Positions 996 through 49,542 of a DNA stretch of 64,000 nt are shown here, one piece after another. The stretch covers positions 8,299 through 72,298 of IMG/VR virus record IMGVR_UViG_3300031951_006582; one strand, given 5' to 3'. Below the pieces are notes generated by a model. That model was not told where the DNA came from, made no database searches, and saw nothing but the letters and a program-made list of their open reading frames with translations. Position 1 is the stretch's first letter. Each line of letters opens with the position of its first letter. Origin of the DNA: a virus. A program made the position numbers and the translations under genes.

Positions 996-3900
996 ATGGC
1001 ACTAGTATCCCCAGGTGTAGAAGTTACGATTACAGATCAATCACAGTATCTTCCAGCACCCACAAACTCAATTCCTTTTATTCTGCTTGCTACTGCACAG
1101 AATAAAGCAAACCCGAACGGCACTGGAGTAGCATCTGGTACTACAGCCGCTAACGCAGGCAAGCTATTCCAAGTAACAAGTCAGCGTGATCTTGTAACTC
1201 TTTACGGCGACCCGTTCTTTTACTCTACTTCAAACGGTACTCCAATTCAGGGTTATGAATTGAACGAGTACGGTTTGCTTGCTGCATACTCAGCACTTGG
1301 TATCACCAATCGTGTATTCTGCGTAAGAGCAGACATTGACCTAGCAAGTCTCGTGGGTCAGACTGGTCGTCCAAGCGGTGAACCAGCAGCCGGTTCATAC
1401 TGGTTAGACACAACCTCTTCAACTTGGGGTATCAATGAGTTCAATGCTGTTACTGGACAGTTTGAATTGCAGCTACCTATCGTAATCACTGACCCAGAAC
1501 TATTAACAGGTGGTTACCCCGTTCAATCAATAGGAACTCCTGGTGATTATGCAGTAAATGCAATCCCCACTTATGATTTCCCTAGCGCACCAACAGCAGT
1601 TCAGTTCTTTTATAAGAATAGTGCAAACGTTTGGGTGTCTATTGGTTCTCCGGAATGGTTAGCTTCATGGCCAACCGTTACAGGTTCCAACACTGTTACT
1701 ACGTTTACTCCTGGTAATACTATCACTATCACAATTGATAACGGTGCAAGTGCAACTATTACTGTTCCAAGCTCACCCAATAACACTCTTGCAAATTTGG
1801 TATCACAAATCAATTCATTGGGATATGCATATTTGTCAGCCGGTTCAACTAATCAAAGACTGCAATTATTTTCTAAACAGCCTGCTTCTACACTTGGTGA
1901 TCTTGTTCCCTATAGTTTAGGAATTTCAGGAACTGGTACTATTCTTACTACTTTGGGTATTCAAGCCGGAACTTATTATCAGCCTGGAGTTGCATATGGA
2001 ACTTCTTCACAGCAACCTCTCTGGACTGCTGGACAGACATATCCTAGACCAAACGGTTCAGTCTGGTTTAAGGTTGGTACAGCCGGATCCGGTCTAAACA
2101 CTGCGATTTCTGAGTGGGATAGCATTACTAATAATTGGGTACCTAAAACAATAGCTTATGCTACTTCAGATGTTAATGCTATTACTGCACTTGACTCAAC
2201 TGGTGGTAAGAATATTCCAGCAGGAACTGTATACACGCAGTATAATTTCGATGCATCAACATCTGCGATTGACAATGATTCCCCACTATACTATTGGGAA
2301 AGAATTGCAACAGGTCCAACTGTAATCACCGGTAGTGTTACTAATCCACAATTCACTAATGGAGCATACACACTTAATGTGTGGGCATCAGTACCAGGAT
2401 CAAGTATTTTAGGTGAATACACCGTTTCGCTAAACGATAACAGCGATGCTCAAGACTTCGTAGATGCTTGGAATAGTGCAGCTATACCGTTCACTACTGC
2501 AAGTGTTACCTCTGCCGGTGCAATTCAACTTACGCACACTCAGGGCGGAACAATTAATATGAGCGACTTTAGTTCAGTTGATGGTTTTAGCTCTGGCTTA
2601 ATTGAGGACGCTGGATTTATTTCTGGTTCAACCCTAGGTGTTAAAACTGGATTTAGCTATGAAGTTAATTTCCAACCAGATCAAACATCAACTGATAGTG
2701 TTGATGGTGCAGGCTTGGTAGTCAACGTTCAGACTGCATATCAGAAGTATTATGTAAATCCGACCGCATTTCCAAATGCAGGTGGCGACTACTTAGTAGG
2801 TGATACTGTAACTTTTTCAGGAGCTGATTTAGGCGGTACAAGCCCAGCCAATGATTTGGTTGTTGTCGTAACCGCAGTGAACCCTGGAACAGGTGAAGTA
2901 TTAGCAGTTACTCCGGCTTCTGGCACACCTAACCAAGCAGCAGCCATGTACACAACTTTATTATCAAATTGGGTAGAGTTTGAAATGACTGCAAACGAAG
3001 GTGCACCCGTAGCTGCTCCTGCAAACAACACTAACTGGTTCTACTCAGTAGTAGATCAAGTTGATATTATGGTCAACACTACTGCAGGTTGGAGAGGATA
3101 TAGAAATGCCAACTATGACAGCAACGGTTTCCCTCTTCCTTCAGGATCAAACACAACTGATCCTAACGGACCAATCGTAAGTGCTACTGAGCCAACCGTA
3201 CAGAGTGACGGAACTGCACTTGCGTTTGGTGATCTTTGGATTGACACAAGTGATCTTGAAAACTATCCAATCATCAATCGTTGGCAGCTTGTAGAAGGTG
3301 CCGGATCATGGGTAAGAATTGATAATGCAGATCAGACAAGTTCAACTGGTGTTCTATTTGCAGATGCACGTTGGGCACAAAACGGCACAACTGACCCAGT
3401 TGACGATCCGATCCCATCAATCGTTACTTTGCTAACCAGCAATTATCTAGATGTTGATGCTCCAGCAGACGAACTTTATCCAGTAGGTATGCTATTGTTT
3501 AACACTCGTCGTTCAGGCTACAATGTTAAGCAATATCGTGTGAATTATTTCAATGCAGAAAGATTCCCTGATACTTCATTGCCTACTGAAAAGAATACTT
3601 GGGTATCTGTTTCTGGATTGCAATCGAACGGCGCACCGTTCATGGGTCGTAAGGCTCAGAGAGCAATGGTTGTTCAAGCATTGAGAGCAGCAATTGATAC
3701 CAATTCTGCCCTACGTGATGAAGACAACGCATTCAACTTGCTTGCTACTCCGAACTATCCTGAACTACAGCCTAACATGGTTGTACTCAACAATGATAGA
3801 GGACAGACTGGATTTATCATTGGTGATACTCCAATGAGACTCCCAGAGAATGCAACTGCAATTCAAGCGTGGGCAACTAACGCAGCAGGCGCAACTTCAA

Positions 3901-4586
3901 CAGGTGAAGAAGGTCTTGTAACTCGTGATACTTATATGGGTCTATTCTACCCATCAGGTATTGCCCCTGATCTATCAGGTAATCTCGTAGCAGTTCCCCC
4001 ATCACACATGATGATCAGAACTATTCTACGTAACGACAACATTGCGTTCCCTTGGTTCGCCCCAGCCGGTACTCGTCGCGGTATCATTGACAATGCTACA
4101 AGCATTGGATATCTCGATAGTGCAACAGGTGAGTTTGTCTCAATGAGAACTAACATCGGAATTCGTGACGTACTGTACACGAATCAGATTAACCCATTGG
4201 TATTCTTCACTGGTAACGGACTATTGAACTATGGTAATAAGTCAAGCTTCAACTCAAGTTCTGCTCTTGACAGAATCAACGTTGCAAGACTTGTTGCTTA
4301 CATTCGTCGTCAATTGACACTTGCAGCAAGACCGTTCGTATTCGAACCAAATGATGCATTGACAAGACAAGAGATTTCAGGTGTTGTTGAAACACTAATG
4401 GTTGATCTTGTTGCTAAGAGAGGTATCTATGACTATCTCGTAGTTTGCGATGAATCAAATAACACACCAGCACGTATTGACAGAAACGAGCTTTGGGTAG
4501 ACGTAGCAATTGAGCCTGTTAAGGCAATTGAATTCATCTACATTCCGGTTCGTGTGTTCAATACAGGTGAGATTTCAGGACAATAA
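996..4586 (+). CDS. Tail sheath protein (T4 gp18-like) with large insertion domains
   Basis: MALVSPGVEV N-terminus; WFAPAGTRRG, LYTNQINP, ALDRINVARL, FVFEPND, CDESNNTPARIDRNEL, IEFIYIP sheath motifs. Confidence 0.97.
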   Translation: MALVSPGVEVTITDQSQYLPAPTNSIPFILLATAQNKANPNGTGVASGTTAANAGKLFQVTSQRDLVTLYGDPFFYSTSNGTPIQGYELNEYGLLAAYSALGITNRVFCVRADIDLASLVGQTGRPSGEPAAGSYWLDTTSSTWGINEFNAVTGQFELQLPIVITDPELLTGGYPVQSIGTPGDYAVNAIPTYDFPSAPTAVQFFYKNSANVWVSIGSPEWLASWPTVTGSNTVTTFTPGNTITITIDNGASATITVPSSPNNTLANLVSQINSLGYAYLSAGSTNQRLQLFSKQPASTLGDLVPYSLGISGTGTILTTLGIQAGTYYQPGVAYGTSSQQPLWTAGQTYPRPNGSVWFKVGTAGSGLNTAISEWDSITNNWVPKTIAYATSDVNAITALDSTGGKNIPAGTVYTQYNFDASTSAIDNDSPLYYWERIATGPTVITGSVTNPQFTNGAYTLNVWASVPGSSILGEYTVSLNDNSDAQDFVDAWNSAAIPFTTASVTSAGAIQLTHTQGGTINMSDFSSVDGFSSGLIEDAGFISGSTLGVKTGFSYEVNFQPDQTSTDSVDGAGLVVNVQTAYQKYYVNPTAFPNAGGDYLVGDTVTFSGADLGGTSPANDLVVVVTAVNPGTGEVLAVTPASGTPNQAAAMYTTLLSNWVEFEMTANEGAPVAAPANNTNWFYSVVDQVDIMVNTTAGWRGYRNANYDSNGFPLPSGSNTTDPNGPIVSATEPTVQSDGTALAFGDLWIDTSDLENYPIINRWQLVEGAGSWVRIDNADQTSSTGVLFADARWAQNGTTDPVDDPIPSIVTLLTSNYLDVDAPADELYPVGMLLFNTRRSGYNVKQYRVNYFNAERFPDTSLPTEKNTWVSVSGLQSNGAPFMGRKAQRAMVVQALRAAIDTNSALRDEDNAFNLLATPNYPELQPNMVVLNNDRGQTGFIIGDTPMRLPENATAIQAWATNAAGATSTGEEGLVTRDTYMGLFYPSGIAPDLSGNLVAVPPSHMMIRTILRNDNIAFPWFAPAGTRRGIIDNATSIGYLDSATGEFVSMRTNIGIRDVLYTNQINPLVFFTGNGLLNYGNKSSFNSSSALDRINVARLVAYIRRQLTLAARPFVFEPNDALTRQEISGVVETLMVDLVAKRGIYDYLVVCDESNNTPARIDRNELWVDVAIEPVKAIEFIYIPVRVFNTGEISGQ

Positions 4587-4591
4587 TTAAG

Positions 4592-4619
4592 TTAATGGGT
4601 GCCCCCGGGCACCCATTAA
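4592..4619. terminator. Perfect hairpin between sheath and tube genes
   Basis: ttaatgggtgcc-cccg-ggcacccattaa inverted repeat; weak U-tract on +, so it may be a processing/stability stem. Confidence 0.6.
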
Positions 4620-4624
4620 TAAAA

Positions 4625-4632
4625 GATAAATA
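4625..4632 (+). promoter_or_regulatory. T4-type late promoter GATAAATA
   Basis: Upstream of AGGAG RBS and tail tube ATG. Confidence 0.7.
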
Positions 4633-4652
4633 CTTATAACAGGAGAATACAA

Positions 4653-7920: not shown

Positions 7921-8550
7921 ATGCGCAGTCTAAAACAATACATCATAGAAAGTGTTCACACTTACGATTATACTGTCAAAATTGCGGGCCAAGTTGATAA
8001 GAATTGGCTTGACATGTTCAAGTATAATCTTAAGAAGTTTGATCCAATTGAAATTTCAGAACCAAAGACCACACCTATTCAAAAGAGTCCATATGGATTC
8101 AATGAGGTAACGAACGAGCCAGTAACTCTAATCAAGTGCAAGTTCCGTTATCCTGCTACTGAGCCAATGGTTCAGCAAATTGCTCAGTTGTTGGGCTACA
8201 ATGTGAACATGGTTCGTCTTGTAAAGACCGGTTATGATGAGAGTGTCACTTCTGAAATGGAAGGCTATGTAAATCAAATGGAGCATAGCCCTGTTCTAAC
8301 TCACGAAGAACTTGAAGAACAACCTGGTGCTAAGGAAGCTGCTAAGGCATATGGTAACAGCTATCTTGACAGCATCAAAGAACAAACTAAGGATGACAAG
8401 ATTGACATTCCTTACGAAGGCACAAAGACACCGGCAGCATTTGATCCTTTCAAGCCAGAAACATTAATGTCAACAATGGGCAAAGATAGTCCAATGAGCA
8501 AGATTACTCGTCCAGCTAAGCCACAAACCGGCGCAATGGGAGGCAGATAA
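7921..8550 (+). CDS. Putative virion protein with capsid-targeting-like N-terminus
   Basis: Starts MRSLKQYIIE|S; late promoter upstream. Confidence 0.65.
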   Translation: MRSLKQYIIESVHTYDYTVKIAGQVDKNWLDMFKYNLKKFDPIEISEPKTTPIQKSPYGFNEVTNEPVTLIKCKFRYPATEPMVQQIAQLLGYNVNMVRLVKTGYDESVTSEMEGYVNQMEHSPVLTHEELEEQPGAKEAAKAYGNSYLDSIKEQTKDDKIDIPYEGTKTPAAFDPFKPETLMSTMGKDSPMSKITRPAKPQTGAMGGR

Positions 8551-37740: not shown

Positions 37741-39629
37741 TGTCCCCGAATGATATGCAGATGTTGATCAAATCATTACACCTGTTAGAACAAGAACCTG
37801 AAGTTCAGGAAAACTCGCCAGTGGTTGAAGACACTGCACAATCTGATAATAGAGATTATCTTCCAGCAATAGAAGAATTTTTATTCAATCTAGGTCCCGA
37901 TGACGTTGGTGTAGAGAAGTTTGGCCCATACACTGTACACTTTGAGGGATTCAGTGACTATTGCCAGCAAGACGCAAATGATCGTTGTTATTTGCCTAAA
38001 GAAGATCCTAGACACTTAGACAAATATGAAGACATATATGACGAGGTTCTACGAGACTTCATTAATCGTGAAGATGGCAAAATGCCAATTGATTCAGGAT
38101 TGACTGGCGACGAAGAATACCCTATCTATTACGCTATCTTTAAAGAAGAAGGCATTGTTGAAGCCAAAGAAAGTATTAAAGACCAAGTTGAAAAAGCCTA
38201 TATCCAAGATGGCGGAAACATTGATGACTATTTTGTAAGACACAGCAGAGTTGATAAGTTAGGATTTAGTCCAAAACAAATCTTTGCTCGTAGCCCTGAT
38301 TTAGATCATCCTGCATATGATATTGATTATATTGGCAATAGTGTAGGTACTCCTGCACTTTGGTTCTATCCATTAAAATATTATTTACAATCTAAGGAAT
38401 TATTTGCTGAGAAATTGCCATATATATGGTTAGTAAAACTAAGACCAAATGCATGGCTACAACCTGTAGACAGGTTTACTAAAACAAAGAAAGAAGCCCC
38501 ACAAGGAAAAGAAAGAGTAGGCATACTTAAGAATACACTTACTCCAGCAGCAATCTTTTTCAAGCCTGCGTTTGATGTTGTAGATAAGTTCTATGACTAT
38601 GGTGGTCAGCATAAGCGTCACGGCGAAGTCAAGGGTGCTCCAGTAGAAGAAGAAATCGCTTATCACGGTACAACAGATGATATAGCTGAGTTCTATCCAC
38701 TCACTCACTTTGGCACTGAGAAGGCTGCTAAAGATAGAATGACATTCAAGAAAATCAAAGATGGTAAAATCTATAAAGTAGATTTAGATATTAAGAATCC
38801 ATTAACTATTAAAGACTTTCCTGGCGTTCACTATGACAGATTATATGCTTTTGAATTGCGTGATAAGAAACTAATTAGTCAAAAAGAAATGGAAGCTATT
38901 ACTACTATTGAAGATAAGGCAGAATTACGAAAAGCATTATTAGCTAAATTAAAAGAATTAGGCTTTGATGGCTTTGTCTATAAGAATAGATACGAAGACA
39001 GAGGCAATCTTAGTTATGTAATAGTTGACCCTAGTCAAGTAAAAGTTCTCGGTGTTGAACCTGCTGCTGAAGAAGTCACTGAAGCAAGCCCAAATACACT
39101 TAAGGGTAGCTTTACTCCAGACTTAGTTGAGAGTAAGAAATGGTTAGCTAATATGTTGGCTAAGGGTCTTAAAGGCAAGAATGCTGGCACTATCTATGTA
39201 TTAGGTAGCTGGTACGGCAATATGGGAATCTTCTTACACGAAGCAGATATCAAGTTTGACAAGTTAGTTTTGGTTGAGCCTAACGAAGAATGGTTGCGTC
39301 AAAGTAAAAAACTATTAGATACGTTTAATACTGAGGGCAAAATCGTATTTCTCAATCAAAAAGCAGAAGATGTTGTTTATGAAAAGCCAGGCGTAGTAAT
39401 CAACACAAGCTGCAACGAAACAGGCCCTATATTCTTGAATAAAGTTCCCGATAATATGCTATGTTTATTACAAGCAAGAAACAACAACGAGAATACATTA
39501 TTCCCAACAGAAGATGAGGAAGACTTTGTAGACTATTTCCCACTTTCAAAGGTTTATTACACTGGCGATAAATATCTAGAAGACCCTGAAATTAATTATG
39601 TTCGTTATATGAAGATTGGTAGAAAATGA
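37740..39629 (+). CDS. Polyvalent cargo protein: ADP-ribosyltransferase-like (ART-PolyVal) plus SAM methyltransferase-like domain
   Basis: AYHGT...THFGT...IYKVDLDIKNP...GFDGFVYKN.YE...SYVIVDPSQVK; then SKKWL...VLGSWYG...INTSC...RYMKIG. Confidence 0.7.
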   Translation: MSPNDMQMLIKSLHLLEQEPEVQENSPVVEDTAQSDNRDYLPAIEEFLFNLGPDDVGVEKFGPYTVHFEGFSDYCQQDANDRCYLPKEDPRHLDKYEDIYDEVLRDFINREDGKMPIDSGLTGDEEYPIYYAIFKEEGIVEAKESIKDQVEKAYIQDGGNIDDYFVRHSRVDKLGFSPKQIFARSPDLDHPAYDIDYIGNSVGTPALWFYPLKYYLQSKELFAEKLPYIWLVKLRPNAWLQPVDRFTKTKKEAPQGKERVGILKNTLTPAAIFFKPAFDVVDKFYDYGGQHKRHGEVKGAPVEEEIAYHGTTDDIAEFYPLTHFGTEKAAKDRMTFKKIKDGKIYKVDLDIKNPLTIKDFPGVHYDRLYAFELRDKKLISQKEMEAITTIEDKAELRKALLAKLKELGFDGFVYKNRYEDRGNLSYVIVDPSQVKVLGVEPAAEEVTEASPNTLKGSFTPDLVESKKWLANMLAKGLKGKNAGTIYVLGSWYGNMGIFLHEADIKFDKLVLVEPNEEWLRQSKKLLDTFNTEGKIVFLNQKAEDVVYEKPGVVINTSCNETGPIFLNKVPDNMLCLLQARNNNENTLFPTEDEEDFVDYFPLSKVYYTGDKYLEDPEINYVRYMKIGRK

Positions 39630-42235
39630 GAGCAAAACAATTCGTACCTATTGTAGAAGCTCAGCAAGAGCTTTTTGAAGTAAATATGAGTCCCGGCAAC
39701 TTGAAGAAGCTTGCTAGCGGGATTGATGCCTTAGTAGGTATTGAATTTGAAATGATGGTTCCCGACGTTGGTTCTGTAGATGACGAGGATAGAGAACCAG
39801 AAGAGGATATGGATTACGATGAAGAAGCATATGATATTGAAGATATCGCTCGCTTCTTTAATGACGGTGGCTATAATGATCGCAGTACAATCAGAGACTT
39901 AGAAGAAGAACTAAGAGAAAAATTCTATGAATGGATAAGTGAACAAATAGACGAAGAATGGAATAATGAAGGTAGACAATACTTTGCACAGTGGGTCAAG
40001 GACAATATAGATCCTGATACTATTGCCGATCACGTAGACAAAGAAGAAGATTTATTTGGTAATAGAAATCCTGACGGATCAGACTGGGATCAGTTCATTG
40101 AAGATGAATGGGAAAAGAGCTTTGATAGCGGTAGTTACGAAAAGGCATACGATGAGTTCCGCGAAGAAAGACAAGATAGCGGCGACTTTGATGAAAGAGA
40201 CTTTCTAAGAGGAATCGGCATTCGTTATATGTCCGATGTTAATGATCATGTGAGAGAGTATGTTGCCTGGCCGCACTATACCTATTCTGACGGTGACAGT
40301 GAAATGAACCTTGAGAGTTTAGCAGATGAATTCTCAGATGCAATTGGTCGCAAAGTTCACTACAGTACAGGTTATCACGGCGGACCAAGAACAAATGACG
40401 CATATACTATTGAACCTGATAGCAGCTTGAGCGGATCAGGTGACGATGCTGGACTTGAGTTCATTAGTCCTCCATTGCCTATTGATGAAGCACTTGAAGA
40501 TGTTAAAAAGATCAAAGAATGGGCTGATGATAAGGGCGCATATACTAACAGAACAACTGGTCTGCATATGAACGTTAGCGTTCCTGGATTTAATCAAGAA
40601 AATCTAGACTTCGTTAAGCTGACATTGTTGCTTGGTGACAAGTATCTATTAGATAGATTTGGTCGTAGTGCAAATACTTACTGCAAGAGTGCTTTAGATA
40701 TTATTGAAGAAGCACCCAATGTACAGGATAAAGAACTTTTATTCAAGAGATTAAAAGACAATCTTGAAACTATAGCAAGTAAAGTCATTCACTCGGGTAG
40801 AGTAGGTAAGTTCACAAGTATCAACCCTAAAGACAATCGTGTTGAATTCAGAGGCCCGGGCGGTGATTGGCTTGGGCAAAACTTTGACAAGATTGAAGAT
40901 ACACTTTATCGTTGCGTAGTAGCACTTGATGCTGCGGTTGATCCTGACAAGTATCGTAAGGAATACTTGAAGAAGCTTACTAAGATGTTTGATCCTGCTA
41001 AGGGTTCATTAGAAGATGTGTTCGTGCAGTATGCAGCGGGTACTATCACTCGTCAAGAATTGAAGGAAAAGCTCAAGGCTACACAATCGCAAAGAAAGAA
41101 AGAAAAGCTTTCTAAAGAAGGCGTGGTTGAATTAGAATTCTATGAAGCACAGGACGGAGATTACATCATTGAATATGATAATCCAACTGGTGATAATCGC
41201 AGAATGTTCCTAAAGAAAACTGAACAAGTAAGTAATGATGATCAAGCATTAAAAGCTGCAATGAATATTGAGCCAAGCTGGTTCAAGCCAGATGACATTG
41301 AAAACATCGTTGTTACTGAGTATACAGGTAGAAAAGTATATAATGTGTTTGATAAGGAAGGTAATGTTGTTGGTACCTACAATGCAGTGACACCTTTACA
41401 AGCAATTGACATTACACTTAGCTACGATAATAGGCTACCTAAACAAGGATTGACTGCTAAGTTAGAAAGTGAGTCGCAGCCAGAACCACTTAGAATGGCT
41501 CCGGGTGAAACAGAGTTTGTTGTAGTGAATAATACGTTGGGTCAAAGAGTAAGCCTAGGTGCAAGAGATAGCGCAACTGCATTAAGCCGTGCATTGCGTA
41601 ACAACCCAAGCTGGGATTCATATGAGCATCTGATTAGAGTTCTCTCAGCAGAACCTCAAACCCAAGAGGAACCACAATATACCGGTTACCGTGTAGCTGG
41701 TTCAAATTCTGAAGAAATTATTGCTGCTAGATCACCTGGCGAAGCACAGCGTATTGCTATGCTACTATATCCTAACTTAGGTGATAACTTAAGTGTCTCT
41801 GCAACGACGATGAGTTCTGGCCTTGCCGCATCACGATACCAACGACATATGGAAGAGATAGCAAGAATGAATGACCGCTCAGCGGGAAGTTCAGAACCGA
41901 GAGAATTTTATGTTAGCAACAACAGATTTGGCGGTACAATTAGGGTTGAAGCCCCTGATGAGGCAGAAGCACTACACGCTGCTACTAGAGCCCGTCCTGA
42001 ATGGTCAATACGAGATTTGACAGCAACCGAAGTAGGCGGAAGATCAAATCAATCTAATAATGGATTGACAGCGGGACAGCCCGGCGAAGGTGAGCTTTAT
42101 CAAGTTACAGATGTAGGCGACACCGGGGGCGTAGTCATTCGTGCAACTAGTCCAGAACATGCTATTGAACGAGCTAGACAAGCACATCGCATAGACCCCT
42201 CAAGAGAATTAGAAGCAAGGCTATATAACGGTTGA
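39626..42235 (+). CDS. Putative amidoligase (COOH-NH2 ligase type 2) with acidic insert and C-terminal repeats
   Basis: VGIEFE, IEPDSSL, GLEFISPP, TGLHMNVS, RVEFRGPGG. Confidence 0.85.
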   Translation: MRAKQFVPIVEAQQELFEVNMSPGNLKKLASGIDALVGIEFEMMVPDVGSVDDEDREPEEDMDYDEEAYDIEDIARFFNDGGYNDRSTIRDLEEELREKFYEWISEQIDEEWNNEGRQYFAQWVKDNIDPDTIADHVDKEEDLFGNRNPDGSDWDQFIEDEWEKSFDSGSYEKAYDEFREERQDSGDFDERDFLRGIGIRYMSDVNDHVREYVAWPHYTYSDGDSEMNLESLADEFSDAIGRKVHYSTGYHGGPRTNDAYTIEPDSSLSGSGDDAGLEFISPPLPIDEALEDVKKIKEWADDKGAYTNRTTGLHMNVSVPGFNQENLDFVKLTLLLGDKYLLDRFGRSANTYCKSALDIIEEAPNVQDKELLFKRLKDNLETIASKVIHSGRVGKFTSINPKDNRVEFRGPGGDWLGQNFDKIEDTLYRCVVALDAAVDPDKYRKEYLKKLTKMFDPAKGSLEDVFVQYAAGTITRQELKEKLKATQSQRKKEKLSKEGVVELEFYEAQDGDYIIEYDNPTGDNRRMFLKKTEQVSNDDQALKAAMNIEPSWFKPDDIENIVVTEYTGRKVYNVFDKEGNVVGTYNAVTPLQAIDITLSYDNRLPKQGLTAKLESESQPEPLRMAPGETEFVVVNNTLGQRVSLGARDSATALSRALRNNPSWDSYEHLIRVLSAEPQTQEEPQYTGYRVAGSNSEEIIAARSPGEAQRIAMLLYPNLGDNLSVSATTMSSGLAASRYQRHMEEIARMNDRSAGSSEPREFYVSNNRFGGTIRVEAPDEAEALHAATRARPEWSIRDLTATEVGGRSNQSNNGLTAGQPGEGELYQVTDVGDTGGVVIRATSPEHAIERARQAHRIDPSRELEARLYNG

Positions 42236-42297: not shown

Positions 42298-42606
42298 ATG
42301 AAAATTAATGAACTGCTTAACGAATCGTTTGACAACGTTGAAGATCCAGATACTGACAAGGTTCCTAACATTGTCATGCAGATTCGCAAGAGCATGGACA
42401 CTGGCGGCAATCGCCCTATCGTCTTTCGTGATGGATCAAAGGCAGAAGTGCCAGTGAATGCAATGATTGCATTCTTGAATCGCTATGAAACTCTACGCCC
42501 AATGGATCGTGAAGAAATGCAGAATCTTGCTATTCAGAGCAAAGAAGCATTTGTAGACGTACTAAAGAGCTATAACAAACCTAGAGCACCTAAGAGTATC
42601 TACTAA
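42298..42606 (+). CDS. Small putative cargo protein
   Basis: MKINELLNE|S; late promoter at 42272-42279. Confidence 0.7.
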   Translation: MKINELLNESFDNVEDPDTDKVPNIVMQIRKSMDTGGNRPIVFRDGSKAEVPVNAMIAFLNRYETLRPMDREEMQNLAIQSKEAFVDVLKSYNKPRAPKSIY

Positions 42607-42613
42607 ATAATAG

Positions 42614-43318
42614 ATGATTTTACTTACAAACGGGTGTAGTTGGACTTGGGGCGGTGGCTTAGGACTTGACCACCCCAACCATAATCAACTACGATTTAAT
42701 TCAGTGTGGCCTTATCATTTAGGCAATCTAATCAACGCAGAAAAAACACACAACTTATCTATTGGCTGTGGGAGCAATCAGCGTATAGTGAGAACTACGA
42801 TTGATTGGGTACTATCTCAGACTAAAGAAGATTTAGCCAAAACAGTTGCAATCATCCAATGGACAGAACTATCCAGGTATGAGTTTTATTATCCTGCTGA
42901 TTATACTAATCATTATGAAAATAAGCATGATAGGTGGGTTAGATGTAAAATTGACTGCATACTAAATCAATATGATGATGATGAATCTGCTAAAAAGAAG
43001 TACAATGATCTAAGACTATCTACCTATACTGAAATTGAAGGCATGTATAGATTCGTTAGTGATCTTTTAGCAGTGGAAAATATACTTACTCAACATAACA
43101 TTCCTTACTATTTTTGGACTTATGATACTAGACTATTAGAAAGATTCCCTAAAGAAATCTATGAGTTTTGCAAGACTAAGTTCAATTGGCTAAACAGTAT
43201 TGACACCGAAGCATGGCAGTATGACTGTGTTTCCAATGAAGACCCTCATCCTAGCTTCTTAGGTCATAAGCAAATAGCACAGTTTTTAGCTGAACCCACA
43301 ACTAATACTTGTAGTTAA
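42614..43318 (+). CDS. SGNH/GDSL hydrolase-like protein
   Basis: NGCSWTWG, NLSIGCGSNQRI, QWT, DPHPSFLGH. Confidence 0.75.
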   Translation: MILLTNGCSWTWGGGLGLDHPNHNQLRFNSVWPYHLGNLINAEKTHNLSIGCGSNQRIVRTTIDWVLSQTKEDLAKTVAIIQWTELSRYEFYYPADYTNHYENKHDRWVRCKIDCILNQYDDDESAKKKYNDLRLSTYTEIEGMYRFVSDLLAVENILTQHNIPYYFWTYDTRLLERFPKEIYEFCKTKFNWLNSIDTEAWQYDCVSNEDPHPSFLGHKQIAQFLAEPTTNTCS

Positions 43319-43333
43319 TTTTTCCCCATAAGA

Positions 43334-43341
43334 GCTAAATA
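43334..43341 (+). promoter_or_regulatory. Late-promoter variant GCTAAATA heading the csg/FecR/cyclase operon
   Basis: Upstream of AAGGAG RBS and GTG 43372. Confidence 0.5.
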
Positions 43342-43371: not shown

Positions 43372-43653
43372 GTGGGGGAATTTTTTAAACTCGTAGCCGA
43401 TGTGGGCTTTCCTATAGCTGCTGCATTAGCTGCAGGCTATTTCGTTTTCCTAACATTGAAATTTATTCTTGCAGGTGTTACTGGTAGTATCAGTGGCATG
43501 AAGGGTATTATCACGGCACTAGACAATCGTGTTAAGACAATGAATCACGATGTTATACGTATTGATACTGTTGTTAGTAACGCTTTAGGTCTTAGACCAG
43601 ACATTGATCGTATCTCAAGAGCAGACGGCAAAGATGATGCGAGAAAAGACTAA
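43372..43653 (+). CDS. Small membrane protein (TM + coiled coil), paralogue 1
   Basis: VADVGFPIAAA...LDNRVKTMNHDVIRID. Confidence 0.75.
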   Translation: MGEFFKLVADVGFPIAAALAAGYFVFLTLKFILAGVTGSISGMKGIITALDNRVKTMNHDVIRIDTVVSNALGLRPDIDRISRADGKDDARKD

Positions 43654-43955
43654 TGGAAGATATTGCTACCTTAATCAGTGAATACGGTTTCCCTATCATC
43701 GCCGCAGGCGGCATGGGATACTTTGTATACTATGTTTGGCAGTGGGCAACTGAAGAAGTTGATCCGGTATTAGGTGAAGCTAACGTGACATTGATTGGGT
43801 TGATTGATCGTATACGTATGCTTGATAATGACTTAATCCGCTTGAAGCAAAAGGTAGATACTGTTTTGCACTTGCGCGGTAAAACGATTGAATATGAAAG
43901 AGTGCAAGCAGAAGAAGAAATTAACAAAATCACAAAAGAAAAAGATGTAAACTAA
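43653..43955 (+). CDS. Small membrane protein (TM + coiled coil), paralogue 2
   Basis: ISEYGFPIIAA...LIDRIRMLDNDLIRL; TAATG coupling. Confidence 0.75.
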   Translation: MEDIATLISEYGFPIIAAGGMGYFVYYVWQWATEEVDPVLGEANVTLIGLIDRIRMLDNDLIRLKQKVDTVLHLRGKTIEYERVQAEEEINKITKEKDVN

Positions 43956-43966
43956 GGGGAAAACAA

Positions 43967-44410
43967 ATGTTGAAAAGAACAATCATACTGTCACTACTCT
44001 TAGCAAGCACACCTGCACATGCTACTGAAATTGTATTTCAATTTAAAAATCCATCGTTCTCTGGAAACAATGCCGGAGCGCAATGGTTAACGATTGAAAA
44101 TCAAGAGTTCAACCGCAAAAAAGACATTCAAGATAAAATTGAAGCGGACTTAAAAGCAAAGGCCCTTGAAGAAAAGAATTCTATCCTCAATCGCTTTATG
44201 AACAATTTACAATCTCGTATATATTCTCAGTTAGCACAGCAGTTGACTAACAATCTGTTTGGTGCAATGGGAGGACAATCCGGCGCATTCACGCTTGAAG
44301 GTAATCAAATCAAGTATGAGAAGACAGACACCGAAATTCGTCTTGTAATCACTGATGATGCTGGTAATGTTACAGAAATCATCATTCCAACTAGTGGATT
44401 TAAATGGTAA
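43967..44410 (+). CDS. csgF: Curli assembly protein CsgF
   Basis: Signal peptide AHA|TEIVFQFKNPSFSG matches the CsgF mature N-terminus; FMNNLQSRIYSQL. Confidence 0.9.
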   Translation: MLKRTIILSLLLASTPAHATEIVFQFKNPSFSGNNAGAQWLTIENQEFNRKKDIQDKIEADLKAKALEEKNSILNRFMNNLQSRIYSQLAQQLTNNLFGAMGGQSGAFTLEGNQIKYEKTDTEIRLVITDDAGNVTEIIIPTSGFKW

Positions 44411-45198
44411 TGAATTGGAAAATTTTAATATTACCCTTCTTATTGGGCGGATGCATGTCAAGTGGAGTTGGCGTCCTAAGTATGCAGGATACTCCGGCTG
44501 TTGTAAACACGCAGGTTAAAGAGTTGCAAAGCTTACCGCCGCCCGAGAGACAAGCTGTTGTTGCAGTATATGATTTTCCAGACTTGACCGGTCAGAGAAG
44601 GGATAGAGACGGCCTTGCAAGTATATCAACTGCTGTTACACAAGGTGGTACTCCATTGCTGATTTCTGCATTGAAAGAGGCAGGTGGAGGTACTTGGTTT
44701 AGGGTAGTTGAGCGCAACAGAGTTGATGACCTTGCAAAAGAGCGTCAAATTGTTAGACAGACTCGTGAAGAATATTTGGGTGAGGGCGCAAACAAGCTTG
44801 AACCAATGCTATTTGCAGGACTTATAATTCAAGGTGGCATCATTGGGTATGACACTAATATACAAACAGGTGGCGCAGGCGCAAGATATTTAGGCATCGG
44901 CGGCACAACTATGTACAGAAAAGATCAAGTTGTGGTAGCGTTAAGAGCAGTCAACACTAACACAGGAGAAGTGATTCTCAACGTACAAGTTTCAAAAACT
45001 GTATTGTCTGTAGGTAGAGACTTGTCACTCTTTAAGTTTGTAGATGTTGGCACAAAGTTAGTCGAAGCCGAAGCTGGTATGACTGAGAATGAAGCAAACA
45101 CAATGGCAGTCAAGATGGCTATCGAAGAAGCAGTTTTACAATTAATTAAACAAGGAATAGAGAAGGGATACTTTAGATACGGGGGAACGGGAGAATGA
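44404..45198 (+). CDS. csgG: Curli secretion channel lipoprotein CsgG
   Basis: Lipobox LLGGC; VAVYDFPDLTGQR, STAVTQG, WFRVVER, KERQIVR, GGIIGYDTN, GARYLGIG. Confidence 0.95.
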   Translation: MVMNWKILILPFLLGGCMSSGVGVLSMQDTPAVVNTQVKELQSLPPPERQAVVAVYDFPDLTGQRRDRDGLASISTAVTQGGTPLLISALKEAGGGTWFRVVERNRVDDLAKERQIVRQTREEYLGEGANKLEPMLFAGLIIQGGIIGYDTNIQTGGAGARYLGIGGTTMYRKDQVVVALRAVNTNTGEVILNVQVSKTVLSVGRDLSLFKFVDVGTKLVEAEAGMTENEANTMAVKMAIEEAVLQLIKQGIEKGYFRYGGTGE

Positions 45199-45890
45199 AG
45201 AATAAATTAATGCTTGCAGCAATGGCGATGCTTGCAAGTTCGGTAGCAATGGCTCAGTCAACTACCAACTCAATTTTTATTGAGCAAGTCGGTGATAGTA
45301 GTAATATTAGTATTACTCAGAAAGGTCAGAGTAACAAAGTTGGAACTGAACAGAATCGTGTAGTTCTTGAGGGAAATAGTCAAACAATAGCAGTAACCCA
45401 AGAAGGCAACAATAACTCTATTCAAGGTTCTATTGTTCAGGCTGATAACGTTGATATGGATGTTACGGTGACTGGAGACAATAATACCTTGACATATGAT
45501 CAAGGTGATGCAGCCAGCGTAGCCGGTTCTACTCAAACTTTAGCAGTTACTGGTGATTCAAACACCTTAACGTTCAATCAAGGTACTGCTGCGTCGGCTA
45601 CGAACGCAACACAAACTGTTACAATCACTGGTGATACTAACACACTTACATCTACTATAAACGCAGATGATGTTGTTAACACTAAGACAATCGCAGGTGA
45701 CGGTAATACTATTACTACAGTACAGGATGGTACTGCTGGAAAGAATATTGAAATGCTTCTTACCGGTAACACTAATACTGTTACAGTAAATCAAAAGAGT
45801 ACAACTAATGTTGACACGCTTAAGATCAATAGCACGAGCAACGGCAGCACTATTACTATTAATCAGTGTAACGCCGGCGGCCCATGCTAA
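45195..45890 (+). CDS. Curlin-like (CsgA/CsgB-like) repeat protein
   Basis: Signal peptide; NSIFIEQVGDS, ITQKGQSN, VTQEGNNN, TVTGDNN, TGDSN, TGDTN, AGDGN, TGNTN repeats. Confidence 0.8.
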   Translation: MKNKLMLAAMAMLASSVAMAQSTTNSIFIEQVGDSSNISITQKGQSNKVGTEQNRVVLEGNSQTIAVTQEGNNNSIQGSIVQADNVDMDVTVTGDNNTLTYDQGDAASVAGSTQTLAVTGDSNTLTFNQGTAASATNATQTVTITGDTNTLTSTINADDVVNTKTIAGDGNTITTVQDGTAGKNIEMLLTGNTNTVTVNQKSTTNVDTLKINSTSNGSTITINQCNAGGPC

Positions 45891-46896
45891 TATAGGTAAA
45901 GTTACGCAAAACAGAGGCGTAAGTGAGGTCGTGAAGAATTCGGCAAGAGTTCCTACACGACCTCAGTTACCTATTGCCAAAATGGATAGGGTGCAGACTG
46001 GCAACGGCAGAGTTGAAATTACATTCGTAGATGATTCTACTGTGCGAGTCACCGAACATTCCAGACTTGTGATTGATGATTTCGTTTATAGCGGTAGACC
46101 ATCTACTTCAAGAATGGCTCTTAGATTTGCATCTGGAACTGCAAGATTTGCAACCGGCAAGTCTGGCAAGATGAATAAAAACAATATCAACCTTAGAACA
46201 CCAACTGCGACTATCGCAGTGAGAGGTACAGACTTTGCAGCAACAGTAGATGACTTTGGCAAAAGCTTGATTGTCTTACTTCCAGAAGAAGATGGGTCAG
46301 TAGGCGAAATCACGGTAGCCAATGCTGCTGGATTTGTCGTTCTTAATAAAGCATTTCAGGCTACTATAGTATCGACGATGGATAGCAGACCTTCTCGCCC
46401 AGTTATATTGAATCTCACGCTTGATATGATTGATAATATGCTAATCATATCTCCAGCAGAAGAAGTTCGCACAGCCGAAGAGATTGCTGATGCCAGAACT
46501 AATCTATTAGATTTGACCGAACTTGATGTTGATTTTCTTGCAAGAGACGATTTAAAAGAAGACCAGTTAGCAAGTTCTGAACTTGATATTAATGCAATCA
46601 ATTCAGATTTCTTAGGAGAAGATTTTCTTGATGATCTGAGTACAGAAGAATGTATGACTAGAGACGGTGTCAAACTTTGCGGAACTACATTTGGTCTTAA
46701 TAACACTACTCAGATTACAACTATTATGTCAGGCGATTATCTACGCCTCGTCAGAACACTAAGTACTACAGTTGATATTGTTGTGAAGAAGGATTCAAAC
46801 AAAACCCTATTCATAGACAGTAATGGAAAATCATTCCTAATTGAAGTCAACGAACCAGCCGGAGGAACTATCATCAATGTTAAGCAAAGCGAGTAA
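45808..46896 (+). CDS. Secreted FecR-domain protein
   Basis: Signal peptide AHA|NIG; DRVQTGNGRVEITFVDDSTVRVTEHSRLVID, TPTATIAVRGTDF; acidic linker. Confidence 0.88.
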   Translation: MLTRLRSIARATAALLLLISVTPAAHANIGKVTQNRGVSEVVKNSARVPTRPQLPIAKMDRVQTGNGRVEITFVDDSTVRVTEHSRLVIDDFVYSGRPSTSRMALRFASGTARFATGKSGKMNKNNINLRTPTATIAVRGTDFAATVDDFGKSLIVLLPEEDGSVGEITVANAAGFVVLNKAFQATIVSTMDSRPSRPVILNLTLDMIDNMLIISPAEEVRTAEEIADARTNLLDLTELDVDFLARDDLKEDQLASSELDINAINSDFLGEDFLDDLSTEECMTRDGVKLCGTTFGLNNTTQITTIMSGDYLRLVRTLSTTVDIVVKKDSNKTLFIDSNGKSFLIEVNEPAGGTIINVKQSE

Positions 46897-48928
46897 AATT
46901 TTATTGTCACCCTGGTTAGCAGTAGCTACACTATTGTTATTGCTATCAGTGAAGTTGATGAATCCGTTCCTAGTTGATAGTATGAAACTAAAGTACTATG
47001 ACTATCTGATGCTTGGGGAACCAATCAAATCAGAACAGATTGTAGTTGCAAATATAGGGGAGAAAGCAATTGAAAAATATGGTCAATATCCGTTTCCAAG
47101 AGAGGTCCATGCTAAAATTATTAGCGACCTTTATAGCGGAGGGGCTGGCATTGTTGGTAGCACTATACTTATGCCTGAGCCTGATCGTTTGGGGACTGAC
47201 GGAGTTCTTGCGAATACACTAAAAGAATATCCGGTTGTATTAAGTCAAACACTTACTGATGATTGCGTTAAGGATAATCGTCTCCCTCGCCGCACAGGCG
47301 TTGCTGTAATTGGTGACGGACAACCCACTGATTTTCTTCCGAACTATCCATGTGTGCTTGATAACATTCCAGCACTTCAAGAGTCTGCCGCAGGCGTCGG
47401 GATAACGACTTCTCTTCCAGAGACGGACGGGGTAACCCGTCGAGTGCCTTTATTAGGGATTTCAAATGGCGAATACTATCCTGCGTTTTCTTTAGAACTT
47501 TTGAGAGTTGCTGCGGGAGATCCTTCATATCAAGCGAAGATAAATCAGACGGGTGTTGAAGCATTGCGTGTTCCTCAGTTTGGTACGATTAATACAGATG
47601 AATATGGGCGTGTCTTTATCAATCCGAACTACCAGTTTTCTTCTGTAGAAATCGGCGAGACAATTCCTGATCTGACTGGTAAGATAGTGATATTAGGCGT
47701 AACTGCTGACGGAGTTGCGAATCCTGTAGCGACTCCATCAGGTGCGCAATATCCCCACACCCTTCAGGCGAGTATGCTTGAGACTCTAATAGCTGGGGAG
47801 ACTGTATCAATTCCGAATTGGGTAGGTCTTGTTGATCTTCTTGCATTCGTCGTCCTTTCACTATTGATAATTTTGTTATCACGGGTACGATATTCAATCG
47901 TTTGGATCGGAATATTAATAGCCGGTTATATTTATGCTCCGATGTATCTATTTACCCATAACAAGATACTATTTGATATTTCTTTCAACGTTTTGGCTGC
48001 ATTAGTAATCTATCTGCACATCTACACTGTTAAGTTTATCAGTGAGTATCTACAGAAGCAACAGATTAAGAAGCAGTTTGGTACATATCTAAGTCCAGAC
48101 TTAGTTGCACAACTACAGCGTCAACCAGAACTATTGAAGCTTGGTGGTACAGAACAAGAATTGTCAATCATGTTTACTGATGTTCGCGGATTCACAACTA
48201 TCTCTGAACACTATGGTAAAGATGTTCAAGGCTTGACAAGCATCATGAATCGTTATATGACTGCTATGACCAAAGCAATTCTTGAGAACAAAGGTACGCT
48301 TGATAAGTATATAGGTGATGCTCAAATGGCGTTTTGGAATGCTCCGGTAAACAACGAACAGCACGCCAAAGACGCAGTTAGAACAGCATTCACAATGCTC
48401 AATTCATTAGAGGAATTCAATAATGAGATTAAAAAAGAAGGCATCCCAGCTTTTGGAATGGGCCTCGGTATTAATACTGATACTGTGGTTGTCGGTAATA
48501 TGGGTAGCACTCAGCGTTTCGACTATACTTGTCTTGGTGACGGGGTCAATCTTGCAGCTAGGCTCGAAGGTCAATCAAAGCCTTACGGCGTTAAGATTGT
48601 CATTGGACCAAAGACTGCCTATTATGTTAAGGATGAATACCAAATCGTAGAACTTGATTTGATTGCAGTTAAGGGTAAGACTGAGCCTGCTAGAATATTT
48701 ACTGTGTTCCCCTTCCACGACATATTGGCCGAGACACAGCATATGAAATTCCTAGAACTATATCGTCAAGGTCATTGGGAAGCTGCTGAAAAGTATGCAA
48801 GTGATCTAAAGAAGTGCTGGAGAGGTGAAATGGACCAGTATTACGATATGATGATTGAAAGAATTCAAGAATTCAGAAACAATCCTCCCGCTAAGTGGGA
48901 TGGGGTGTACAGGGCAACTTCAAAGTAA
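46877..48928 (+). CDS. CHASE2-domain class III adenylate cyclase
   Basis: N-terminal TM, GQYPFPR and DGVTRRVPL CHASE2 motifs, 3 TM, then FTDVRGFT, DKYIGDA, DYTCLGDGVNLAARLE, VKGK. Confidence 0.95.
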   Translation: MLSKASKILLSPWLAVATLLLLLSVKLMNPFLVDSMKLKYYDYLMLGEPIKSEQIVVANIGEKAIEKYGQYPFPREVHAKIISDLYSGGAGIVGSTILMPEPDRLGTDGVLANTLKEYPVVLSQTLTDDCVKDNRLPRRTGVAVIGDGQPTDFLPNYPCVLDNIPALQESAAGVGITTSLPETDGVTRRVPLLGISNGEYYPAFSLELLRVAAGDPSYQAKINQTGVEALRVPQFGTINTDEYGRVFINPNYQFSSVEIGETIPDLTGKIVILGVTADGVANPVATPSGAQYPHTLQASMLETLIAGETVSIPNWVGLVDLLAFVVLSLLIILLSRVRYSIVWIGILIAGYIYAPMYLFTHNKILFDISFNVLAALVIYLHIYTVKFISEYLQKQQIKKQFGTYLSPDLVAQLQRQPELLKLGGTEQELSIMFTDVRGFTTISEHYGKDVQGLTSIMNRYMTAMTKAILENKGTLDKYIGDAQMAFWNAPVNNEQHAKDAVRTAFTMLNSLEEFNNEIKKEGIPAFGMGLGINTDTVVVGNMGSTQRFDYTCLGDGVNLAARLEGQSKPYGVKIVIGPKTAYYVKDEYQIVELDLIAVKGKTEPARIFTVFPFHDILAETQHMKFLELYRQGHWEAAEKYASDLKKCWRGEMDQYYDMMIERIQEFRNNPPAKWDGVYRATSK

Positions 48929-49023: not shown

Positions 49024-49542
49024 ATGAAGAAGTTAATCGCACTCGCAGCACTCGCAACCGCTGCTTTTACTACCCCTGCAATGGCATCTGATTTTGCCGG
49101 TCCTCGTGTTGAGGTAACCGCTGGAGCTGATGACGTTACTGGTGGTGTTGACACGACTGACATTGCTTATGGCGCAGCCCTTGGTTATGACCTTCAGTTC
49201 GGTAAGGTAGTTGTCGGTGCAGAAGCAACCGCTGCTAACGTCTTTGAGAAGGCTGATCTTGGCGCAGCCGCTCGTCTTGGTTATACCTTGAACAAGAATG
49301 TTCTTGCTTATACCCGCGTCGGTTACGCCAATCTTGAGCGTCCTCAGACTTGCACACCTCGCATTGGGAATACTCCAGCAGTTTGCCGTAATACTGCAAA
49401 CTTGGAAGGTCTCACCGTTGGTGGTGGTCTTGAAGTGAAGCTTGTTGGCTCAACATTCGTTAAGGCTGAGTATCGCTACTCTGACTTTGACGGCGCTGTT
49501 GGTCGTCACGGCGGACTCGTAGGCTTCGGTCTTCGTTTCTAA
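49024..49542 (+). CDS. Outer-membrane 8-stranded beta-barrel protein (Omp25/OmpA-like)
   Basis: Signal peptide AMA|; GYDLQFG, ARLGY, GGGLEV, KAEYRYSD, terminal Phe. Confidence 0.88.
   Translation: MKKLIALAALATAAFTTPAMASDFAGPRVEVTAGADDVTGGVDTTDIAYGAALGYDLQFGKVVVGAEATAANVFEKADLGAAARLGYTLNKNVLAYTRVGYANLERPQTCTPRIGNTPAVCRNTANLEGLTVGGGLEVKLVGSTFVKAEYRYSDFDGAVGRHGGLVGFGLRF

Follow-up and report, generated by a model that had tools for sequence, protein, structure and literature searches.

Curli-type secretion genes of bacteriophages have been described by Wittmers et al. 2022 (PMC9599517), the available portions of which report, from pelagiphages that include podoviruses as well as myoviruses, a module with the gene order of one or two small proteins called histidine kinases ('HK'), CsgF, CsgG, CsgA/B, FecR, often a second CsgA/B, and an adenylate cyclase (AC). 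FecR and AC are presented there as putative regulators, an alphaproteobacterial origin is inferred, and viral curli proteins are reported at all 65 ocean stations examined and also in metatranscriptomes. Curli genes are likewise discussed by Zaragoza-Solas et al. 2020 (PMC7029224) and Buchholz et al. 2022 (PMC9004378), with no mention of the cyclase or of FecR in their main texts, while CHASE2 has 0 occurrences in the main text of PMC9599517 and a literature search found no paper pairing CsgG with CHASE2, and curli, FecR and adenylate cyclase together in PMC9599517 only. Here, we describe such a locus at positions 43372-48928 of a 64,000-nucleotide (nt) stretch of viral DNA, called the window below (positions 8,299 to 72,298 of IMG/VR record IMGVR_UViG_3300031951_006582). 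The module is already known, and the window holds a further member of it from a different, larger myovirus lineage, whose gene set and order are the same as in Pelagibacter phage HTVC008M and Methylophilales phage Melnitz, with proteins 27-59% identical to theirs, and which has the short form, without the optional second curlin of the pelagiphage module. Its seven genes are found to behave as one conserved unit, and the reading that we favour is that of a self-contained, horizontally mobile envelope module, which may operate as a secretion-coupled cyclic AMP (cAMP) signalling unit with a probability of roughly 0.45. Added here to the published description are the CHASE2 sensor, the correction of the 'HK' label, a Caulobacterales cluster, the co-variation and terminal strand of FecR, and FecR/CHASE2 pairs free of any type VIII secretion system (T8SS).

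All seven consecutive genes that an earlier note on this DNA had placed here are present as + strand open reading frames (ORFs), abutting or overlapping in the ORF list of the window, and are preceded by a promoter-like motif (figures after family names are match E-values):

43335-43341 (+): CTAAATA, late-promoter-like motif, 31 nt before the GTG of the TM1 gene
43372-43653 (+): TM1, small membrane protein, 93 aa, GTG start; phrog_18771 1.7e-35
43653-43955 (+): TM2, small membrane protein, 100 aa; phrog_18771 2.6e-30
43967-44410 (+): CsgF with Sec signal peptide, 147 aa; Pfam CsgF 3.9e-25
44404-45198 (+): CsgG lipoprotein with LLGGC lipobox, 264 aa; Pfam CsgG 8.6e-50
45195-45890 (+): curlin-like repeat protein, secreted, single copy (short module form), 231 aa; Curlin_rpt 0.0086
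45808-46896 (+): FecR-fold protein, secreted, 362 aa; Pfam FecR 8.8e-13
46841-48928 (+), likely start 46877: fusion of CHASE2 and class III adenylate cyclase, 695 aa; Pfam CHASE2 6.3e-36, Guanylate_cyc 9.5e-20

The junctions are, in order, a 1-nt overlap, an 11-nt gap and overlaps of 7, 4, 83 and 56 nt, the last of which becomes 20 nt with the later cyclase start; the ATG at 46877 is the likelier start because relatives align from residue ~10-19 of the 695-aa ORF.

Conservation of this gene set was followed from two seeds. Among the best 80 of 588 viral contigs related to the cyclase, 48 loci had at least 5.8 kb of upstream sequence and could be counted, and all six other module genes were present in 47 of these 48, the sole exception belonging to a subgroup with the small genes downstream, on a contig that ends before them. 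When the best 80 of 194 relatives of the HTVC008M CsgG were used and counts were restricted to sufficiently long flanks, FecR accompanied CsgG in 41 of 41 loci and CHASE2/cyclase did so in 18 of 18, as did CsgF with the pair of small transmembrane (TM) genes in 74 of 74. The co-occurrence of FecR and cyclase with csgFG, set beforehand as the test of the operon proposed in the earlier note, was thus observed from the cyclase and from CsgG alike. In a collection of 50,697 curated phage records, TM1 and FecR share one set of 6 records, and CsgG is found in this set and in a 1.5-kb Salmonella fragment. The module is abundant, given 588 viral contigs with close relatives of its cyclase, and it moves between phage backbones, since in some relatives a DNA polymerase of only ~30% identity is accompanied by a cyclase of ~70% identity. 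Two cassette types, ~85% and ~40% identical to the window, are found between similar flanks. Across 39 distinct loci, the pairwise identities of CsgG, curlin and the N- and C-terminal domains of FecR correlate with each other at rho 0.77-0.87, and those of the two small proteins follow one another and CHASE2 at rho 0.67-0.86, the cyclase domain being decoupled.

By homology, the CsgG pore capped by CsgF is predicted to be a type VIII secretion channel of the curli type, located in the outer membrane of the host. CsgG matches PDB 3x2r over residues 7-257 (2.2e-45), and CsgF matches the CsgF of PDB 6l7a (4.5e-4) with FQFKNPSFSGN aligned to FQFRNPNFGGN, so that the N-terminal peptide that inserts into the pore appears to be conserved. 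The system shares with E. coli curli CsgG, this pore-inserting peptide and a repeat-rich secreted protein modelled as a beta-solenoid, and differs from it in having one curlin rather than a CsgA/CsgB pair and in lacking any CsgE-, CsgC- or CsgD-type domain in the 72-kb viral record, while the enterobacterial curli system contains nothing equivalent to FecR, the cyclase or the TM pair. The absence of csgC, csgD and csgE from the window, as claimed before, holds across the whole 72,298-nt record, itself ~20% complete, where PF10627 (CsgE), PF10610 (CsgC) and PF00196 (GerE-type, CsgD-like) gave 0 matches. CsgG carries R/S/I at the constriction where E. coli has Y/N/F (Y51/N55/F56). The constriction loop (near residues 60-75) reads RRDRDGLASI as compared to FKPYPASNF in E. 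coli, and is hence more charged and without the Tyr/Asn/Phe ring; this altered loop fits the remark on a 'reconfigured pore' in the part of PMC9004378 at hand. Sec signal peptides can be read from the sequences of CsgF, the curlin-like protein and the FecR protein. The curlin-like protein has ~8 repeats with the core h-x-h-x-Q-x-G, and its AlphaFold2 (AF2) model is an all-beta repeat with 17 regular strands (predicted local distance difference test score, pLDDT, 79.9; predicted TM-score, pTM, 0.78). Such a beta-solenoid is likely to be the cargo or the fibre subunit of the CsgG/CsgF channel. Long module variants carry a second curlin (9 of 9 tested), and the window has one; some long modules contain in addition an ORF of 167-185 aa between the second curlin and the cyclase (L037 7492-7995; L052 7486-8043), which matched no module profile.

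The FecR-fold protein consists of a signal peptide, a beta-domain at residues 30-190, an acidic linker of low model confidence and a C-terminal beta-domain at residues 282-360 (AF2 pLDDT 87.1). Its N-terminal domain finds 4m0h/4m0n (1.6e-4), PupR 6ovk_R (5.3e-4) and RIN 5ix9 (4.4e-3) in Foldseek searches, and hence has the periplasmic signalling-domain fold in common with Fec/Pup signalling (FecA-FecR-FecI; PupB-PupR). The Fec/Pup regulators have an anti-sigma domain and a TM anchor, whereas the window protein has a cleavable signal peptide instead; neither a cytoplasmic anti-sigma domain nor a TM anchor was found in it, and the module and the scanned flanking ORFs yielded neither a sigma factor nor a TonB-dependent transducer. 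Because the signal peptide replaces the anti-sigma domain and TM segment, and no sigma factor or TonB transducer lies beside the module, the protein is not a Fec-type iron regulator, and nothing about iron should be read into its name. The resemblance to RIN of the RTX adhesin MpIBP (5ix9; LapA-type) covers the first ~70 residues of the FecR domain and is weak and partial (TM-score 0.74 by target length, 31% identity over 62 columns, profile E 0.0011). The available text of PMC5550230 describes RIN as a periplasmic plug which keeps a giant adhesin threaded in the TolC pore; that system is type I secretion via TolC, whereas the pore in the window is CsgG. At the other end of the protein, the last ~14 residues contain the curlin core motif [ILVM]x[ILVM]xQ within a C-terminal strand. 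The family has 189 representatives at E<=1e-30. The motif is present in 68 of 84 full-length family representatives and in 18 of 18 viral sequences, as compared to a background of 11.6% of ORFs. Homology of the whole C-terminal domain to curlin was rejected (hhalign probability 6.9%), and the strand motif is retained as an observation. No fusions of FecR to other module parts were found among the best 150 family representatives, and two members, P0029 (622 aa) and P0050 (565 aa), have an Asn/Thr/Ser-rich insert before the same FecR-family ending. A predicted complex of the CHASE2 periplasmic domain with mature FecR scored 0.00 with a mark of 0.32, run without controls, and counts neither way.

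The cyclase, as read from its sequence, has one TM helix, a periplasmic CHASE2 domain of ~300 residues (Pfam CHASE2 spans residues 32-343), three further TM helices, a cytoplasmic catalytic domain and a conserved C-terminal tail, WDGVYRATSK. The motifs quoted earlier, FTDVRGFT, DKYIGDA, DYT and NLAAR, are all in the sequence. In class III cyclases, two Asp residues bind metal, a Lys together with Thr/Asp selects the substrate, Asn and Arg act in the transition state, and a further Lys is present. In a 12-row alignment of phage and bacterial sequences the two metal Asp, the Lys, the Asn/Arg and the Lys of KGK are invariant, and the Thr is replaced by Ser in one bacterial row. The specificity Lys/Thr and the large periplasmic CHASE2 domain point to a regulated receptor adenylate cyclase. 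In most loci the cyclase domain is uniformly conserved, at 71-89% identity to the window, while other parts vary. Within the same gene of L072, L074 and their relatives, CHASE2 is ~41-42% and the cyclase domain ~80% identical to the window, a contrast which indicates either intragenic recombination or much faster change of the periplasmic half.

Both small membrane proteins match phrog_18771, a PHROG of unknown function, and are therefore regarded as paralogues. They are single-pass membrane proteins with a coiled coil; TM1 has an N-terminal TM helix with a GFPI motif, followed by the coiled coil and a conserved RADGKxDAR+D tail. Neither belongs to any family in Pfam, NCBIfam or PADLOC; YvrJ gives a weak lead (E 0.04-0.08 over ~12 residues; nearest named cluster in the Atlas, score 0.89). 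A resemblance to the holin-like BhlA/UviB proteins was considered, and no match to them was obtained. In 10 orthologues of the small proteins, HisKA and HATPase_c gave no match at E<=10, the His of MNHD, which is the sole candidate His, is Asn in TM1 of L071, L074, L075, L077 and L081, and all TM2 sequences have Asn or Gln at this position. The size below 101 aa, the missing kinase domain and the missing invariant His speak against a histidine kinase, and the label given to these proteins in PMC9599517 is thus unsupported; this correction, like the identification of CHASE2, matters for the annotation of such phages. TM2 was always paired with TM1 among the loci examined. In L060, L062, L063, L066 and L067 the two genes are instead encoded downstream of the cyclase, on the opposite strand; L069 shows TM2 alone at that place, at the contig end.

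Outside phages, FecR and the cyclase are stated in the available text of PMC9599517 not to lie within bacterial T8SS operons. A scan with the FecR profile of one bacterial genome per species, in which the best 80 of 202 relatives were inspected, revealed csgF-csgG-curlin-fecR-cyclase in four metagenome-assembled genomes (MAGs) of Caulobacterales (L084, L085 and L087, with L089 partial), the TM pair of the phage versions being absent from these clusters. Two Caulobacteraceae MAGs have two curlin genes each and one Henriciella MAG has one long curlin; in a second Henriciella contig the cluster is cut at the contig end. The flanks consist of ordinary chromosomal genes, namely those for a TonB receptor, an acyl-CoA dehydrogenase, an alanine-racemase-type enzyme and an amidohydrolase, and one of the contigs is 397 kb long. 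These clusters qualify the statement of PMC9599517, whose Fig. 4A or supplements may already show such arrangements. The five-gene cluster is rare, in that 3 of 401 sampled genomes from the order of genome G001 match the FecR profile at E<=1e-25, with a strong match in G001 alone. A cyclase tree places the four chromosomal copies from bacteria within the viral sequences, with long branches involved; a direction of transfer from phage to bacterium was not adopted and no donor is claimed, as an approximately unbiased (AU) test allows all bacterial rows together (p 0.333). Just upstream of csgF in the Caulobacteraceae MAG L085, a calcineurin-like phosphoesterase is encoded (3779-4639, +; Metallophos 8.3e-17), which by analogy to Campylobacterota clusters in the accessible part of PMC9239204 could be a cyclic-nucleotide phosphodiesterase partner. 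Eight further module contigs (L088, L090-L096) were assigned to MAGs from widely separated phyla, namely Pelagibacter, Flavobacteriaceae, Polynucleobacter, Pirellulales, Legionellales, Rhodobacteraceae, Bacteroidetes and an unclassified bacterium. The small-gene pair is present on seven of the eight, L092 being limited to the csgF-to-FecR part, and all are probably phage contigs that were mis-binned together with a host or on account of coverage.

A FecR domain beside a CHASE2 cyclase is also met with where no T8SS is present. Among 67 distant bacterial FecR loci, seven have an adjacent CHASE2 or cyclase gene and no T8SS, four of these in Campylobacterota (L130, L137, L149, L159), a group for which the portion of PMC9239204 at hand likewise describes a FecR-domain protein clustered with a CHASE2 cyclase. 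The pairing of the two, which the earlier note had drawn from the window, accordingly recurs in unrelated bacteria. Neighbours of the distant FecR genes include tetratricopeptide repeat (TPR)/2-oxoglutarate (2OG)-oxygenase proteins upstream (10 of 62), and Pirin (7 of 61) and CHASE2 (4 of 61) downstream; these ORFs were chosen by a longest-ORF rule and some are perhaps not real genes.

In the secretion-coupled signalling unit, the FecR-fold protein would stay in the periplasm as the coupling element. Its conserved N-terminal beta-domain would employ the fold used by anti-sigma regulators to read outer-membrane transducers, and its variable C-terminal domain with the curlin-like strand would be fitted to one given CsgG/curlin set. 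FecR would pass on to CHASE2 the condition of the secretion apparatus or of the fibre, or the action of an outside agent on either; the cyclase would then make cAMP inside the infected cell, and the reader of this cAMP would have to be a host protein. The contacts, the direction of the signal and the benefit to the phage are what we infer in this scheme. The closest functional precedent is in Sinorhizobium meliloti, where, according to the sections of PMC7529298 and PMC13001267 at hand, the CHASE2 cyclases CyaK, CyaD1 and CyaD2 receive their signal in dependence on the outer-membrane protein NsrA, so that, as proposed here, an outer-membrane component and an inner-membrane CHASE2 class III cyclase turn an outside cue into cAMP. 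NsrA is a large beta-barrel (PMC7529298, same sections), in contrast to the CsgG/CsgF pore with a curlin in the window, and no beta-barrel was found in the FecR protein, whose 362 aa contain two small beta-domains. The earlier note had read all seven genes as one machine spanning the envelope, a trans-envelope mechanism not found stated in the available text of PMC9599517. In favour of one machine are the conservation as a unit, the recurrence of FecR/CHASE2 pairs and the NsrA precedent; what did not follow is the expected tie between FecR and CHASE2, as FecR co-varies with the secretion genes instead. The curlin sensor in the pore and the link to lysis timing or exclusion, as proposed in the earlier note, find no support here.

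This and several other observations weigh against the signalling unit. Co-variation of FecR with CHASE2 (rho 0.49-0.64) is below that of FecR with the secretion genes, and the identity correlations altogether show blocks of inheritance and no proof of contact, since linkage and shared ancestry inflate them. Both viral samples are top-scoring subsets biased to close relatives, in which modules devoid of the cyclase are under-sampled; the consulted part of PMC9599517 reports that FecR and cyclase are not always in phage curli regions, with the cyclase less frequent in podoviruses, and hence the secretion part can exist without the cyclase. At 60 of the 67 distant FecR loci there is no cyclase nearby and the neighbours are mixed. 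No domain binding cyclic nucleotide monophosphates (cNMP) exceeded the Pfam cut-off in the record of the window or in those of four related phages, of which two are complete. The curlin-like protein matches Curlin_rpt (0.0086) and NCBIfam CsgA (1e-4) below the cut-offs of both, and its model retrieved no solved structure at E<=1e-3 with Foldseek, the weak matches being mostly beta-helix proteins. Finally, the cargo of the phage CsgG channel may differ from that of E. coli, because the constriction residues differ.

A bolder version, which we consider unlikely, takes the module as a portable trans-envelope receptor installed by the phage. The CsgG/CsgF pore would hold a curlin fibre as an external antenna or tether, FecR would dock at the periplasmic mouth of the pore like the RIN plug, bind the fibre subunit by its C-terminal strand and relay the state of the fibre to the CHASE2 cyclase, and cAMP would be the readout of contact, of a second phage or of envelope damage. 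If this were true, the same device in Caulobacterales would make it a general, undescribed secretion-coupled second-messenger system.

The main rival, possible though doubtful in our estimate, is essentially the published view and holds that fibre production itself is the purpose. Curli-like fibres would serve aggregation ('sibling capture') or act as a superinfection barrier, FecR would be a T8SS accessory replacing CsgE/CsgC/CsgH as chaperone, adaptor or plug, and the cyclase would be a separate regulator whose input is not the secretion system. Proposed in the accessible parts of PMC9599517 and PMC7029224, this explanation accounts well for the presence of CsgG, CsgF and a confidently modelled beta-solenoid curlin, for the second curlin of all nine long variants, which recalls CsgA/CsgB pairs, for the co-variation of FecR with CsgG and curlin, for CsgE and CsgC not being found in the 72-kb record, and for a cyclase that is not always present (PMC9599517). 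It does not sit easily with the absence of clumping in Melnitz-infected cultures, as reported in the available text of Buchholz et al. (PMC9004378). Presence of the cyclase in 18/18 and 47/48 sampled loci and its retention in the bacterial cluster are hard to explain if it is unrelated to secretion, and the adjacency of FecR and CHASE2 recurs without any T8SS.

An improbable alternative regards the module as a lysis-timing device, in which the CsgG or CsgGF pore and the TM pair, as holin/antiholin-like factors, permeabilise the envelope and the cyclase feeds into timing, as proposed for Melnitz in the consulted portion of PMC9004378. A weak match of TM2 to the holin family phrog_4898 (8.9e-4) would agree with such a role, but it is marginal and covers residues 1-21 only. 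The altered CsgG constriction and the restriction of the TM pair to phage versions would also agree, whereas depolarisation of the inner membrane is beyond the reach of a pore in the outer one, the model assigns no role to CsgF, curlin or FecR, and the bacterial chromosomal cluster keeps five genes without any lysis context. The timing of expression bears on the same alternative, as a late-type promoter motif precedes the module. CTAAATA, and TATAAATA, which occurs once in the window, are presumably the late-promoter cores of T4 and T4-like cyanophages. Of 41 distinct regions upstream of TM1 in related loci, 30 carry TATAAATA (22) or CTAAATA (8), as compared to 1.5% of random 109-nt windows, and because the motif recurs in so many lineages the module is likely to be expressed late in infection. 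The late-promoter variant noted earlier is therefore present and recurrent in front of orthologues, but CTAAATA is not enriched window-wide (11 found against 12.3 expected), and scans for terminators and sigma-70 promoters gave counts within the range expected from shuffling.

It is very improbable that the cyclase acts on nucleotide pools or host defence, by draining ATP or as a decoy signal, and has no more than an operon in common with a secretion cassette to which it is unrelated. Its catalytic domain does match Pycsar cyclase models of PADLOC (best 4.6e-24), but this represents generic class III homology; no phage cNMP reader was found in the five records, and the cyclase domain is uniformly conserved while other parts vary, whereas the specificity Lys/Thr and the CHASE2 sensor argue for a regulated receptor cyclase and the linkage with FecR and csgFG is strict in phages and bacteria. 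Equally hard to credit is the import channel suggested in the available portions of PMC7029224 and PMC9599517, in which an ungated CsgG pore, its gate CsgE not being found in the 72-kb record, admits larger nutrients or cofactors and FecR is read as an iron-related regulator, since this FecR protein has a signal peptide in place of an anti-sigma domain and TM segment, its module and the immediate surroundings showed neither a sigma factor nor a TonB transducer, and CsgF, curlin and the cyclase are left unexplained.

Returning to the secretion-coupled signalling unit, its significance lies in that the module supplies the infected cell with a secretion apparatus and with an enzyme for second-messenger synthesis, both of which are missing from hosts such as SAR11 and OM43 according to the published papers as far as available. 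The existence of the module is no surprise to specialists; the possible coupling of CHASE2 and FecR, the bacterial cluster and the corrected annotation make the question testable. If FecR couples the T8SS pore to CHASE2, then a single small operon offers a way to test which ligands or partners CHASE2 reads and for what reason curli genes are present in phages, for which Melnitz with H5P1, HTVC008M with HTCC1062 and the bacterial chromosomal version can serve as test beds.

The viral record itself is a 72-kb fragment, ~20% complete according to CheckV, and genes for a tail sheath, an ATP-dependent protease and a DNA polymerase are likewise located in the window. Related contigs bearing the module reach 172-361 kb and include complete genomes of 172 kb and 361 kb. 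From these structural and replication genes and the sizes of the related genomes, the source phage is assigned to a large, jumbo-type myovirus lineage, distinct from the ~140-kb pelagimyophages. In the freshwater metatranscriptome library X1, 8% of sampled words matched, and five short contigs were obtained, two of them identical to the window (43520-43670 and 43964-44200), in a library that may include DNA; the identical contigs weakly hint at a non-marine lineage. Freshwater SAR11 myophages are reported without a curli operon in the part of PMC7029224 consulted.

Upstream of the module, an 869-aa acidic protein (39626-42235, +) with a weak match to an amidoligase-family PHROG (5.8e-9) and a 102-aa ORF (42298-42606) have relatives upstream of the module in some related loci only, and a DUF6071 protein (42614-43318, +; 1.5e-12) has no relative in any of 82 loci; all three are outside the conserved module. 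Downstream, directly after the cyclase, a small outer-membrane beta-barrel protein with a signal peptide is encoded (49024-49542, +; 172 aa; Pfam OMP_b-brl 6.3e-14). This OmpA-like 8-strand barrel follows the cyclase directly in L003-L008, L017, L057 and L065 and lies elsewhere or is missing in other loci, and is hence a possible accessory and no constant member of the module. Judging from this additional barrel, the curli pore may not be the only change that the phage makes to the outer membrane.

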